A stretch of 64,000 nt of DNA from Patescibacteria group bacterium (GCA_018816885.1 JAHIUS010000001.1:8028-72027); one strand, 5' to 3'. Shown: positions 4,218 to 42,899, numbered from the stretch's first letter. Program-made: numbers and translations. The notes: generated from the letters alone by a model not told the origin.

Positions 4218-4973
4218 TTAGCTTGACAGGGTCAATATTTCATGGCCTTGTGGCGTTACAAGTATTGTGTGTTCAATTTGTATTGAAAGTGAGCCGTCCT
4301 TGGTTGCAATTGTCCAATTATCTTCGAGAGTCTTGGTATGCCTGGTTTTTTCTCCTATGATCGGCTCGATTGCAAGGGTCATGCCGGGTTTTAGGGCGGG
4401 GCCTTGTCCTTTTTTCCCAAAATTGTTGATTATCGGTGGTTCGTGCAGTTCTCTTCCGACGCCGTGACCTGTCAGATGTTTGATAATGTGGTATCCGGCT
4501 TGTTGAACTACGGATTGTATCGCAAAGCTTATATCTCCAACTCTTTTTCCGGGCTTGATTTCTTTTATCCCGGCCCGAAGTGCTTTTTCGCCTACCTTTA
4601 GAAGTCTTTCCGCTTTCGGATTATCTTTCCCTTTCACAATAAAGGATATGGTTGCATCTGTTATTAGTCCCTGAAGGGTCATGCCGCAGTCTATACTGAC
4701 GAGGTCTCCGGGTTTTAGCTCATATTTTCCGGGGATTGCATGTACAACTTGTTCGTTTACGGAAGAGCAGATTGCTCCGGGAAAGTTTCTATAGCCAAGA
4801 AATGTTGGAGTTGTTCCGTTTTCTTCGCATAGCCGGATGCAGAGTTCATTTAGTTCTTCTGTTTTTATTCCCGGCTTTGCCGCTTGTTTCAGTTTTTGCA
4901 AAGTTTCCGCGAGAATTTTGCCGCATCGGCGCATTATTTCTATCTCCTGTGAATTTTTTAGGGCATGGGGCAT
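4218..4973 (-). CDS. map: Type I methionine aminopeptidase
   Basis: 251 aa aligning to MetAP from KNSQEIEIMRR onward. The only in-frame ATG upstream of that block lies inside the GGGCATN repeat array. Confidence 0.9.
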   Translation of the reverse strand: MPHALKNSQEIEIMRRCGKILAETLQKLKQAAKPGIKTEELNELCIRLCEENGTTPTFLGYRNFPGAICSSVNEQVVHAIPGKYELKPGDLVSIDCGMTLQGLITDATISFIVKGKDNPKAERLLKVGEKALRAGIKEIKPGKRVGDISFAIQSVVQQAGYHIIKHLTGHGVGRELHEPPIINNFGKKGQGPALKPGMTLAIEPIIGEKTRHTKTLEDNWTIATKDGSLSIQIEHTILVTPQGHEILTLSS

Positions 4974-5041
4974 AGGGCATGGGGCATAGGGCAGAGGGCA
5001 TGCGGGCTTCGCCCTCTGCGGGTGCCCCGCCTTGGCGGGGC
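4961..5041 (+). repeat. Composite spacer: GGGCATN heptamer array, stop-proximal hairpin and CCCCGCC/GGCGGGG palindrome
   Basis: Seven G3-4 tracts at 7-bp period (4961-5006), GCATGCGGGCTTCGCCCTC hairpin (4998-5024), palindrome 5024-5041. Confidence 0.9.
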
Positions 5042-5042
5042 A

Positions 5043-5675
5043 TTATTGTAGGTTGAGGCTGTTTTCGAGTAGCGTGTCGACTTCTTCGACTGAGCCTTCT
5101 CCGTTGATTTCGATCATTTTCCCTTCGGATTTGTATTTCTCGATTACGGGGAGGGTTTCGTTTTGGTAGGCCGTCAGGCGATTTTTTATAGAATCCGCAT
5201 TGTCGTCCGATCTTGTGATAAGTTCTCCGCCGCATTTTTCACAGGACTTTTCTTTGTAATCTGCCGGGTATACTTCTTTGCATTTACTGCAGATTCTTCT
5301 TGTGGTTAGCCTTTTCAGGGCTGTTTTTTCCGAAATTTTGATCAAAACTCCCATAAATTCTCTTCCTAATTTCTCCATTAGTGCGTTGAAAGATTCCGCT
5401 TGCTCCATTTTTCTGGGAATGCCGTCGAATATTACACTTTCCCCTTCCGGGATATTTTCTGCAAAGTTTTCAATAATTTCCATTACTATTTCGTTCGAAA
5501 CCAAATGTCCGGCTTCGATGATTTCTTTTACTTTTTCCCCTAATCCAGAGTCTTCCGAAGCGAGTTTGCGTAATTCCGCTCCTGTTTCAAAAACTTTCAG
5601 ATTGTGTCTTTCGGCTATGAGTTTGCCTTGAGTTCCTTTTCCGGAACCCTGCATGCCGAAGAAAACTAGATCCAT
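5043..5675 (-). CDS. adk: Adenylate kinase (zinc-lid type)
   Basis: 210 aa, P-loop GMQGSGKGTQ, lid CSKC...CEKCGG. Confidence 0.95.
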   Translation of the reverse strand: MDLVFFGMQGSGKGTQGKLIAERHNLKVFETGAELRKLASEDSGLGEKVKEIIEAGHLVSNEIVMEIIENFAENIPEGESVIFDGIPRKMEQAESFNALMEKLGREFMGVLIKISEKTALKRLTTRRICSKCKEVYPADYKEKSCEKCGGELITRSDDNADSIKNRLTAYQNETLPVIEKYKSEGKMIEINGEGSVEEVDTLLENSLNLQ

Positions 5676-5710
5676 GATGGTAGGGGGTTAGGTTGTAGCG
5701 GCATACTATT

Positions 5711-41054: not shown

Positions 41055-41759
41055 ATGTCACAAGAAACTCAAAAATCATCTCAAGAAATGCTTGAGAAAA
41101 TACAAGATGATGCGGCGGAGCTTATGGATCTTTTTGATATTGCTCTTAAGGAAGGGGTTTTGGGGGAAGGGAAGGGTTTTCGGGGTAAGGAGAGGTTTAA
41201 TTTGCTTTTTCCTCAAGAGGTTCCTCGTTCGACAAGAGATAGCATGGGCTTCAGGCAGGATTATGATTTTGCGGGGTTTAAATATGAAAGCGAGGTGGCA
41301 AGAATGAGAGACATGTCGAATGATCCTTCGGAGGCTTATGAGCGCAGGGGTGCTTTTTCCGAGGCGTTTAAAGTGTCTTTTGCCAAGAAAAATCGTGAAG
41401 ATGGGGTGGTTTATGATGCTGTTTTTATTGTTAGAACACCTGATGGTGAATATGATCGTTATTGTCTTGATGAGGACAGTGATTTTACTGGGGATTCTAA
41501 ATTTGTCTTGAATTATCCGGATGCGATGCGGAAGTTTGAGGAGTTCCTTTTGTTTGCTGCCGAAGTTTTGAATGAGGAGATGGAGGGTTCGCCATTCCAA
41601 GTGTTGCGAAAACAGATCAGGAATCGTCTTGGAGTTCCTTCTGTTAGTGGTATTATTGATCGGGCTCGAGAGGCGGTTTCCAGTTGTCTTTGTTACGATC
41701 AGATTGTTGCGGCGGAGGTACTTGGGATTCCGGGGAAAGGCAGTGAAGTAGCGAAGTAG
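41055..41759 (+). CDS. Hypothetical protein
   Basis: 234 aa from MSQETQKSS. The last codons (SEVAK stop) are encoded by an AGTGAAGTAGCGAAGTAG repeat word. Confidence 0.55.
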   Translation: MSQETQKSSQEMLEKIQDDAAELMDLFDIALKEGVLGEGKGFRGKERFNLLFPQEVPRSTRDSMGFRQDYDFAGFKYESEVARMRDMSNDPSEAYERRGAFSEAFKVSFAKKNREDGVVYDAVFIVRTPDGEYDRYCLDEDSDFTGDSKFVLNYPDAMRKFEEFLLFAAEVLNEEMEGSPFQVLRKQIRNRLGVPSVSGIIDRAREAVSSCLCYDQIVAAEVLGIPGKGSEVAK

Positions 41760-41860
41760 TATGTAGTGAAGTAGTGCGTGGGATTGTATTTTAAGTAAAA
41801 TTGGGAAATGGGAAAATCCCCAAAAAATAATATTGAGGCTGGAGAGTTTTTAGTTGTTGA

Positions 41861-42868
41861 TTAGGCTTCCGCTTGTCCAATATACGCAGCCAATTCAACG
41901 AGTCTCACCGAATATCCCCATTCGTTGTCGTACCAGGCGAGGACTTTTAGCATATTGCCATCTATCATCATGGTTGAAGGAGCGTCGATAATTGAGGAAA
42001 AATTGCTTTTGATGTAGTCGCTTGAGACGCAAGGTTCTTCGCAGTATTCCAAGATTCCTTTTAGTTCGCCTTGTGCGGCTTCTTTGAAGGCTTTGTTTAC
42101 TTCTTCTTCTGTTGTTTCAGTGCTTAGTTCGCAGACCAGGTCGACGATGGAGACTGTTGGGGTTGGGACTCTTATGGACATTCCGTTAAATTTGCCTTCG
42201 AGTTCCGGGATTACCATTCCGATTGCTTTTGCGGCTCCTGTTGTTGTTGGGATTAGGTTCAAAGCTCCCGCTCTAGCGCGGCGAGGGTCTTTGTGGGAGC
42301 TGTCGATTATATTTTGGTCGTTTGTGTAGGAGTGGATTGTTGTCATTAAACCTTTTACAATGCCGAATTTGTCGTTTAGGACTTTGGCGACGGGGGCGAG
42401 GCAGTTTGTTGTGCAGGATGCGTTTGAGATCAGTTTGTCGGTTTCCGGGTTAAAAGTTTTTTCGTTTACGCCAAGGACAATTGTTCGGTCCAGATCTTTA
42501 CCGGGTGCGCTGATTAGGACTCTTTTTGCTCCGGCCTTGAGGTGTTTTTCTGCGCCTTCACGGGTGCGGAATACTCCTGTTGATTCGACTGCGATATCTA
42601 TTCCGAGCTGTCCCCACGGGAGGTTTTCGGGTTCTCTGTCTCCGAAGACTTTTAATTCTTTTCCATCGATGATTATTGAATTTCCTGAGATTTGGATATC
42701 GGCTTTGAGTGGGCCGTAAACAGAATCGTATTTGAGCAGGTGTGCGAGTTGGTCGATTGGTGATGGGTCGTTGATGGCTACAACTTCAACCAGGTCTGCC
42801 ATGAGGTTTGCGCGGAAAAAAGCGCGTCCGATTCGTCCGAATCCGTTGATTGCAACTCTGGGTTTCAT
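41861..42868 (-). CDS. gap: Glyceraldehyde-3-phosphate dehydrogenase
   Basis: 335 aa, INGFGRIGR, SCTTNCLAP. Confidence 0.97.
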   Translation of the reverse strand: MKPRVAINGFGRIGRAFFRANLMADLVEVVAINDPSPIDQLAHLLKYDSVYGPLKADIQISGNSIIIDGKELKVFGDREPENLPWGQLGIDIAVESTGVFRTREGAEKHLKAGAKRVLISAPGKDLDRTIVLGVNEKTFNPETDKLISNASCTTNCLAPVAKVLNDKFGIVKGLMTTIHSYTNDQNIIDSSHKDPRRARAGALNLIPTTTGAAKAIGMVIPELEGKFNGMSIRVPTPTVSIVDLVCELSTETTEEEVNKAFKEAAQGELKGILEYCEEPCVSSDYIKSNFSSIIDAPSTMMIDGNMLKVLAWYDNEWGYSVRLVELAAYIGQAEA

Positions 42869-42875
42869 TTGGTGA

Positions 42876-42899
42876 GGGGTTAGGGTCTAGGGTTTAGGG
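42876..42899 (+). repeat. GGGG-TTA-GGG-TCTA-GGG-TTTA-GGG array in the gap leader
   Basis: Direct reading; 7-bp period, four G-tracts. Confidence 0.85.

Follow-up and report, generated by a model that had tools for sequence, protein, structure and literature searches.

Direct repeats of the heptamer TAACTGA occur as 169 sets in a Beggiatoaceae genome (MacGregor 2015, PMC4679880), and have also been found in some Cyanobacteria and Bacteroidetes (PMC4679880). The sets lie mostly in forward orientation just 5' of start codons, and their last unit often stops only a few nt short of the ATG; about 10% of them come with a Shine-Dalgarno (SD) sequence, and some overlap the ends of upstream open reading frames (ORFs) (PMC4679880). 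They are also found at internal positions of ribosomal-protein operons (fusA, L3, S4), with S1, Csp or CsrA proposed as binders; a role in translational regulation has been proposed (PMC4679880). The short tandemly repeated repetitive (STRR) heptamers of cyanobacteria are non-coding and also lie between the co-transcribed hupS and hupL genes; suggested roles for them are in the stability of transcripts or the coupling of translation (PMC2670836). Here we analyse a stretch of 64,000 nucleotides from a Patescibacteria group bacterium (GCA_018816885.1, JAHIUS010000001.1:8028-72027; the whole stretch is called the window), in which arrays of a heptamer reading GGGCATN on the plus strand lie between the cistrons of a minus-strand super-operon for ribosomal proteins and RNA polymerase. 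The original prediction saw in these arrays canonical G-quadruplex (G4) motifs on the template strand of essential operons. We find that they are a heptamer-repeat element of the known kind in a new phylum, with lineage-specific unit replacement and added hairpin modules, and that the G4 motif is most likely a by-product of the repeat unit.

The likeness to the TAACTGA repeats is close. In both cases tandem 7-nt units (2-6 or more copies in the Beggiatoaceae) are mostly intergenic, point forward, lie near a start codon where SD sequences are rare, and are found in ribosomal-protein operons. TAACTGA itself was not found here. Unlike the TAACTGA system, many unit families coexist in our window, and the dominant unit switches between lineages whose L2 proteins are 80-89% identical. 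The host belongs to the candidate phyla radiation (CPR), its arrays are joined to GC-rich hairpin modules, SD tetramers are absent from all 48 genes considered below, and the unit holds CCC, which creates G4 motifs on the complement. The likeness to STRR extends to the unit, as CCCCATG, CCCAATG and CCCTATG form arrays in Nostoc, Microcoleus, Calothrix and Oscillatoria among the matches listed. When species-representative genomes were scanned with CATGCCCNNTGCCCNNTGCCC, the matches listed fell mostly in Nostoc, Microcoleus, Calothrix, Oscillatoria and Tolypothrix. Unlike the minus-side family in our window, in which every array is sense-oriented, the cyanobacterial arrays show no orientation preference by a crude ORF heuristic applied to the matches listed (23 versus 19). 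The same unit is thus shared, among the matches listed (L002-L120), by a CPR bacterium and many Nostocales and Oscillatoriales genomes; convergence, a slippage bias that both have, or an ecological connection may lie behind this. A metagenome scan with a hairpin-plus-unit signature, GAGGGCNAAGCCCGCATNCCC, returned 12 hits, all of them chance matches in contigs of 54-74% GC.

The strongest evidence on what is conserved comes from related genomes. We compared the super-operon loci of four lineages (L122, L124, L126 and L128), whose L2 proteins are 80-89% identical, together with three more distant relatives (L144-L146; L2 66-69% identical). In all four close relatives the same spacers carry tandem short repeats with a G-poor sense strand, built from other units: GCCTAAN in L122, where the array often begins in the closing codons of the gene before it (...AAA GCC TAA, then CGCCTAAAGCCTAA); ACTACNA, TACTCAT and ATTCTAAA in L124; AGCTAAN, CTACTAA, ACCCTAY and ATCCTAM in L126; and ATACTMA in L128. 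Between rpoC and map, the window has five canonical G4 motifs on the template strand, L126 has one, and L122, L124 and L128 have none; G4 motifs were not conserved at orthologous positions across these four relatives. G4 formation as the purpose of the arrays is not supported, since orthologous spacers hold other heptamers without G3 runs and GGGCATN is one of many families. What is conserved, by this comparison, is a sense-strand, G-poor, weakly structured repeat leader and not G4 potential. An AUG in every unit (as in the window) and a UAA in every unit (as in L122) were also considered as the conserved feature and dropped, as neither is common across lineages. The three distant relatives have short spacers with few or no arrays, 4-6% G before starts, and SD sequences in 0-1 of about 20 genes, so that G-poor leaders lacking an SD sequence are ancestral in the clade. 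Among the loci compared, the expansion of heptamer arrays is a subclade feature, and the CCC unit with its G4 potential is peculiar to the window lineage. The genes adk and map overlap in the relatives, and here two hairpins and an array stand between them, a point that also speaks for fast turnover.

Judging from comparisons of near-identical sequences, repeat turnover is fast. L130 and L131 (99.9% identical, same organism) differ in 19 kb by a single indel of 21 nt, exactly three heptamers (TCTTTGATTTTTGATTTAGAG); it sits in a tandem array (L130:16141-16220) 5' of a PMT_2 glycosyltransferase gene, and this is not a GGGCATN array. Between L126 and L127 the rplB/rpsS spacer has been remodelled: identity is 99.1% over an aligned 4.1 kb, and the differences lie mostly in that spacer. 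The GGGCATN arrays themselves are identical in the three available copies, of which L001, a Logan contig, is 100% identical to the window. A difference in spacer length between L122 and L123 was discarded as repeat variation, being a scaffold-gap artefact (a run of N).

The G-tract arrays are confirmed as real and far above chance. The eight arrays originally described, at 4961-5006, 7025-7050, 13461-13486, 22601-22624, 26994-27061, 28054-28085, 38565-38589 and 42876-42899, are all present as described. At least seven motifs had been said to fit G3+N1-7 x4; a regular expression gives 11 merged motifs on the plus strand, including the listed seven, and its C version gives none, i.e. there are no motifs on the minus strand. 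The four extra motifs lie at 4376-4401 (map coding sequence), 34554-34580 (serS leader), and 41154-41185 and 43441-43467 (plus-strand ORFs). Arrays were defined as at least three G3+ tracts with gaps of at most 5 nt and compared with 200 shuffles of the window that keep local composition. This shuffle control gave 19 observed arrays against a mean of 3.2 (maximum 7), and arrays of at least four tracts numbered 7 against 0.35, with no C arrays on the plus strand; four of the 19 are G-rich coding stretches of plus-strand ORFs outside the GGGCATN family. The claim that such arrays occur in at least 17 spacers holds, since 23 of 68 spacers have two or more G3 tracts 3-5 nt apart on the plus strand (C equivalent, 0 of 68). 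Tandem Repeats Finder (TRF) reports periods of 7 or 14 at 4959-5001, 20923-20948, 22601-22625, 23056-23074, 26995-27060 (period 7 over 26995-27056), 28061-28086, 33164-33189 and 34564-34585, and recovers the reported fourfold 14-bp unit as a 14-mer repeated 4.1 times with 100% matches at 27003-27060. The seven listed motifs have mean G4Hunter scores of 1.57-2.00 and the 14-mer array has only 1.09, where about 1.5 or above is the criterion for a putative quadruplex sequence (PQS); these scores suggest that the seven would fold into G4 in vitro. The likeness to bacterial regulatory PQS lies in the canonical G3+N1-7 x4 form and high G4Hunter values. Unlike regulatory PQS, the motif shows no conservation at orthologous sites, its place is the template strand within operons and not a promoter, and unit composition explains it. 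By TRF, GGGCATN is only one among many heptamer and other short tandem-repeat families in the spacers of the window. As originally reported, the neighbouring genes are on the minus strand, the G-rich strand is the template, and the mRNA carries CCCYAUG repeats.

On the mRNA strand the spacers follow a common plan: a stop codon, one or more GC hairpins, (CCCYATG)n, a CTAA-rich C/A/T leader, and the ATG of the next gene. The sense unit varies as CCCYATG, CCCTCTG and CCCAATG. All arrays of the family that adjoin minus-strand genes are sense-oriented and lie about 0-60 nt 5' of the next ATG; one overlaps a start codon and another an ORF end. In predicted RNA folds the stems stand beside the stop codon, and the other units, like the leader as far as the AUG, are unpaired. 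The commonest hairpin, HP1, reads TCCAC(C/A)GAG-GGGC-GAA-GCCC-GCATGCCC, and its (CA)GAGGGC often forms a stem with GCCCTC(TG), the first unit, that encloses or replaces the inner GGGC/GCCC hairpin. Across about 10 paralogous copies of the inner hairpin, 84% of cells are paired, and a GC-to-CG double change in 3 of 10 lends modest support to maintenance of the HP1 stem. HP2 (CCCCGCC-AAGG-CGGGG) has three identical copies. HP3, (C)CGTTTCGC-loop-GCGAAAC(ACC), has 10 copies, all in one orientation on the minus strand, at 32215-32235, 33207-33224, 38432-38452, 40153-40170, 43518-43536, 46228-46245, 56386-56552 (three copies) and 59593-59610; unlike the heptamer units, HP3 is also common to the L122 and L124 spacers, and it may be a REP-like (repetitive extragenic palindromic) element or a terminator without a U tract. 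The region 5' of the minus-strand gene 55451-56344 holds, at 56380-56566, 2.5 tandem copies of a 74-nt unit (99% identical), each with two hairpin modules.

The recurrence of HP2 and HP3 alongside HP1 makes the spacers mosaics reminiscent of the REP elements and bacterial interspersed mosaic elements (BIME) of enterobacteria. Those elements are small, GC-rich, imperfect palindromes of several families that combine modularly after stop codons in operon gaps and are linked to protection of mRNA 3' ends. The common ground is that small dispersed palindrome families (HP1, HP2, HP3) are combined in intercistronic gaps. Unlike in REP/BIME, stems in this window measure no more than 4-9 bp and come coupled to heptamer arrays, and the sequences are unrelated. 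Other classes fitted less well. The hairpins were rejected as intrinsic terminators, as C-rich units and no U tract follow them; a terminator scan found 41, modestly more than the 28.4 +/- 5.4 of shuffles, and almost every hit was antisense. No terminal inverted repeats with target duplications were seen, which set aside a reading as miniature inverted-repeat transposable elements, and no spacer-repeat periodicity was seen, which set aside a CRISPR-like one. In several spacers sigma-70-like boxes lie 5' of the arrays, e.g. TTGATT-16-TATAAT ahead of the fusA array, so that the arrays would lie in 5' untranslated regions or intercistronic RNA; a scan of the window for promoter-like sequences found no more than in shuffles.

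Leaders that are poor in G or rich in A, and that work independently of SD sequences, are known as the Bacteroidetes type, and the omega leader of tobacco mosaic virus (TMV), with its (CAA)n, is a tandem repeat without G that enhances translation. The leaders of the 48 minus-strand genes of the window resemble these in that a lack of G and of predicted secondary structure would stand in for SD sequences. The G content at -20 to -1 is 4.8%, against 20.4% for the sense strand overall, and none of the 48 genes has an SD-like tetramer (GGAG, GAGG or AGGA) at -20 to -4. Unlike in Bacteroidetes-type and omega leaders, the units here are rich in C rather than A and contain AUG. Predicted minimum free energy (MFE) over -35 to +15 is -2.0 kcal/mol for leaders, -5.7 for random sense windows and -6.1 for the reverse complements of leaders; for array-bearing leaders the reverse complement reaches -8.1, or -9.8 with G4 allowed. 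Since the reverse complements are predicted to fold more strongly than the leaders, RNA structure depends on orientation: self-pairing is open to the G/U-rich complement and not to the C/A-rich strand. A CTAA or ACTAA motif lies about 5-20 nt before the ATG in 28 of the 48 genes. It could be a clade-specific ribosome-binding signal, pairing for example with the 3' tail of 16S rRNA, or merely provide stops in all frames. The combination of a CTAA-type motif before the ATG and no SD sequence also holds in relatives down to 66% L2 identity. A survey of CPR ribosomes reports the loss of bS21 and bL33 in the Gracilibacteria/Peregrinibacteria-type clade and less frequent detection of the anti-SD motif only in a Parcubacteria subgroup (PMC9297842).

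We suggest, as the reading we hold to be on balance probable, that each spacer is an RNA-level element in which hairpins close the upstream cistron and a G-poor heptamer tract made by slippage leaves the next one with an open region for SD-independent initiation. The hairpins would mark and protect the end of the upstream cistron's mRNA. The C/A/U-rich repeat tract, free of G-C or G-U self-pairing, would keep the ribosome landing region open, and this region would serve SD-independent initiation or re-initiation at the next cistron. Arrays would arise and change by replication slippage and spread between spacers, and only the orientation with G kept away from the mRNA would be tolerated. Because the unit of this lineage happens to contain CCC, a canonical G4 motif stands on the template strand, by this reading as a by-product.

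The bias of strand calls for caution. It had been called complete, and on the plus strand there are indeed no C-array equivalents; as evidence it is confounded by neighbouring genes that almost all lie on one strand and by an absolute excess of G over C. On the plus strand, the ratio of G3+ to C3+ runs is 96:18 in spacers between two minus-strand genes, 211:37 in plus-strand coding sequence and 352:269 in minus-strand coding sequence. Instances of the GGGCATN family within the window all adjoin minus-strand genes, and other heptamer arrays beside plus-strand genes are G-poor on the plus strand (AGATCAA x14.6, AAGAACC, ATCTAAA x9.4), so that the sense strand is poor in G in about 17 of 17 arrays by minus-strand genes and 5 of 6 by plus-strand genes. 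Cumulative GC skew climbs monotonically along the window, the plus strand being G- and T-rich and leading-strand-like; the super-operon would then lie on the lagging strand, or the skew of this genome would be unusual. The sense strand of minus-strand genes is 37.7% A, with C at least equal to G.

Several observations weigh against the initiation-region reading. Spacers between two plus-strand genes carry G3 runs on the plus strand only (10:0), and one heptamer array among them, TGTAGGG/GATAGGG at 60741-60757, is G-rich on the sense strand, an exception to the template-strand rule; with the absolute G>C skew, this exception means that the bias is not assignable to transcription from the window alone. 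The related loci all belong to the same operon and presumably have the same replication orientation, so that sense orientation and absolute strand are confounded there too. Array-bearing leaders are predicted to be more structured (-3.7 kcal/mol) than other leaders (-1.6), each CCCYATG unit holds one G and one AUG, and the 14-mer array at 26994-27061 folds well as RNA, via GCAUGC palindromes (z -3.3). Furthermore, one unit is shared by dozens of spacers per genome, a concerted evolution that goes beyond structure avoidance alone, and the function we propose is inferred from anatomy and comparison.

That the G-rich template strand folds into G4 and so pauses or modulates RNA polymerase, or replication, between essential cistrons now seems very improbable to us. 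At least seven spacer motifs do fit G3+N1-7 x4 with G4Hunter values of 1.57-2.0, they are strongly enriched over shuffles, and all lie on the template strand of the super-operon. However, orthologous spacers of the four related lineages lack the motif (one motif in L126 excepted) and keep tandem heptamers, the largest array scores only 1.09, and the first G tracts double as arms of ordinary hairpins that would compete. The template strand is occupied by the RNA-DNA hybrid during transcription, it is hard to see what a roadblock would gain in operons of the highest expression, and the strand bias is confounded by absolute G>C skew. A more serious contender, unlikely as we still hold it to be, is that the arrays are functionless, slippage-prone, microsatellite-like DNA homogenised by recombination, with their orientation due to compositional skew and purifying selection against G-rich leaders. 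Units and copy numbers shift quickly among close relatives and strains, distant relatives manage without arrays, an absolute strand skew exists, and the identical unit has no orientation preference in filamentous cyanobacteria (23 ++ versus 19 -- among the matches listed, by the crude ORF heuristic). Such DNA would nonetheless be expected to be costly where these arrays lie, as they reach into the ribosome-binding region and start codons of essential genes; nor does it account well for the sense-strand G-poverty of about 17/17 minus-side and 5/6 plus-side arrays, or for the joining of arrays to hairpin modules in fixed order.

The concerted behaviour of the units brings in another idea, to which we give only a small chance: that the heptamers bind a trans-acting factor, evolving together with the unit in each lineage, by which translation or coupling of the ribosomal-protein cistrons is regulated. 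This might be ribosomal protein S1, a protein of the cold-shock, KH or CsrA-like type, a small RNA, or some variable segment of rRNA. A single unit, or a handful, prevails in many spacers of a genome and gives way completely to others in the next lineage, the position ahead of starts is fixed, and a like proposal exists for TAACTGA repeats (PMC4679880). Yet several unrelated units occur within one genome, the window has no rRNA or other Rfam family, and distant relatives keep this style of leader and lack the arrays. A bolder version, in which the arrays are a working SD replacement in a CPR subclade, cis-signals read by the co-evolving factor, with the unit also loading the template with foldable G4 motifs, strikes us as rather improbable; if true, it would explain the concerted rewriting of super-operon spacers in each lineage. 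Finally, it is hard to credit that the tracts are Rho-loading, rut-like (Rho utilization) sites imposing polarity when the downstream cistron is untranslated. A C-rich, G-poor, unpaired composition is typical of rut sites, and on their sense strand the arrays have about 45-57% C and 14% G and are predicted to be unpaired, but the arrays are mostly 17-45 nt, below typical rut length, and the relatives' units GCCTAAN and ATACTMA are far less C-rich.

The initiation-region reading bears on how ribosomes find internal starts in polycistronic mRNAs that lack SD sequences, and on what STRR and TAACTGA repeats do. The clade offers a natural comparison, the same essential spacers having a different G-poor heptamer in each lineage and none in more distant relatives, and this makes the hypotheses of a structure-free landing pad, a trans-factor site and junk separable. 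It also holds a caution for G4 motif scans, as a strong, strand-pure PQS signal can stem from the composition of a repeat unit that owes its selection, or its tolerance, to the opposite strand.

The individual spacers, all on the minus strand, show how the parts are combined. The largest array, at 4961-5006, has six sense units of CCCYATG/CCCTCTG, the first of which, GCCCTCTGC, pairs as the 3' arm with GCAGAGGGC in a 9-bp stem. It had been placed between adk and map, which is partly so: the map start (ATG at 4971-4973) and the first five codons in all (ATG CCC CAT GCC CTA, MPHAL; codons 2-5 follow the ATG) are inside it. Right after the adk stop, at 5007-5042, stand HP2 (CCCCGCC-AAGG-CGGGG, 5025-5040) and an HP1 of GGGC-GAA-GCCC (MFE -36.8, z -3.8). 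The rplO/secY spacer (array 7025-7050) reads CCCGCCCCGACAATACCCTATGCCCC, then CTAAACCCTAGTAC-ATG. In the rpsE/rplO spacer (7550-7596) the hairpin TCCACCGAG-GGGC-GAA-GCCC-GCATGCCC is followed by 1-2 units and a CTAAC leader; in rplX/rplE (10392-10440) the hairpin is the variant GGCC-GAA-GGCC, a compensatory change, and after it come GCATGCTCTATGCCCC and a CTAAC leader. The rplB/rpsS spacer (13445-13502) has a hairpin module, the array 13461-13486 and the leader CACTAACACACTAAATC. Between rplC and rplD (15330-15377) a GGGC-AAA-GCCC hairpin precedes GCATGCCCAATGCCC, which touches the rplD start, and in the rplC leader at 15963-16020 an outer CAGAGG/CCTCTG stem encloses GGCC-AAC-GGCC, followed by CCCAATGCCCTAAC. 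A Met-Pro-His-stop mini-ORF, ATGCCCCACTAA, stands at the 3' end of three arrays (7010-7051, 10392-10440 and 13445-13502), just 5' of the real starts, and a Met-Pro-stop, ATGCCCTAA, at other arrays.

Further along the super-operon, the fusA leader array (20929-20949) lies downstream of the promoter-like TTGATT-16-TATAAT at 21001-20974. The rpsL/rpsG array CCCCATGCCCTCTGCCCCATGCCC (22601-22624) forms a 6-bp CAGAGG/CCTCTG stem and has another heptamer array, TAAGCCA (22574-22597), after it, and the rpsL leader array CCATGCCCTAAGCCCTATGCC (23056-23074) ends 2 nt short of the ATG. The rpoC leader (26994-27061) has a GGGCC-ATCA-GGCCC hairpin and then the 14-mer GCATGCCCTATGCC x4.1. In the ssb/antiporter spacer (28054-28134), HP2 (28108-28123) and an HP1-like GGCC-GTCA-GGCC (28079-28098) accompany the array 28054-28085, after which the antiporter likely starts as MSHELIIW. 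The leader array of an AP_endonuc_2 gene (33164-33189) is preceded by an HP3 reading CGTTCCGC-ACA-GCGGAAC (33207-33224). The serS leader array (34554-34585) contains an upstream in-frame ATG, which is probably not the true start, this being MLDPKLIRENP. The array at 38565-38589 was correctly placed inside the 3' end of the GNAT gene: it encodes the last 13 residues of a Ser_hydrolase-GNAT ORF and lies just upstream of a promoter-like TTGACC...TATAAT of dnaK. The hrcA/grpE spacer (40073-40215) is a mosaic of HP3, HP1 (GGGCC-GAGAA-GGCCC), HP2 and units GCATGCCCTGAACCCC...GCCCTCTGCCCTAAC (MFE -49.9, z -3.1). The gap 5' leader (42876-42899) has a different unit, CCCTAAA/CCCTAGA/CCCTAAC, and is predicted to be unstructured (MFE -1.4).

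Positions 1-34,500 of the window form one minus-strand super-operon (rpoB-rpoC-str-S10-spc-alpha), in the order rpoB, ssb, a Na/Ca-exchanger gene, rpoC, rpsL, rpsG, two unknown ORFs, fusA, tuf, rpsJ, an unknown ORF, and then S10, spc and alpha, which include secY, adk, map, infA, rpmJ, rpoA and rplQ; no L30 gene was found in it. Pfam matches (M24 for map, SSB, Na_Ca_ex, Ser_hydrolase plus GNAT) leave these gene assignments standing. The L2 homologues carry the names Candidatus Gracilibacteria, Peregrinibacteria or Patescibacteria, and the host is a CPR bacterium of the Peregrinibacteria/Gracilibacteria clade, whose genome appears to be small, given its CPR-like content. The proteins of the window are singletons at 90% identity, and GCA_043810065.1 carries a 99.9%-identical copy of the locus. 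Searches of the whole window returned no match to Rfam 15 at the gathering threshold and no tRNA or tmRNA.

Three ORFs without a Pfam match are embedded in the super-operon, in its rpsG-fusA and rpsJ-rplC gaps; a lipoprotein-type signal (LAGC) marks one of the three, and relatives have equivalents of them. The non-ribosomal inserts lie at 16151-16894, 21007-21456, 21533-22057 and 27087-28743, with ssb and the Na/Ca exchanger between rpoB and rpoC. The leaders of rpsJ (17251-17451) and rplC (16040-16150) are long, structured and conserved in sequence in the window, L122, L124 and L126. Their conserved stretches, TTTTTGGTTTCAATTGCCCGGGTAAAA...GGGATTCCCTCCCGG and, following a TTGACT-17-TATAAA box, GCAAGTTTAAAATTTGCAAGTTAGAACAGG, have no Rfam match, and the two leaders are candidate CPR-specific autoregulatory leaders of ribosomal-protein genes. 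Outside the super-operon, a 14-mer, AGTACCAAGTAATG, is repeated 9.8 times at 44102-44238 and is spuriously translated as the N-terminus of ORF 43621-44193. AGATCAA x14.6 lies between pfk and a sigma-factor gene (50040-50141), AATGGCT x7 overlaps the start of a mraY-like gene (54383-54431), and ATCTAAA x9.4 (63330-63397) overlaps the stop of 61886-63349.

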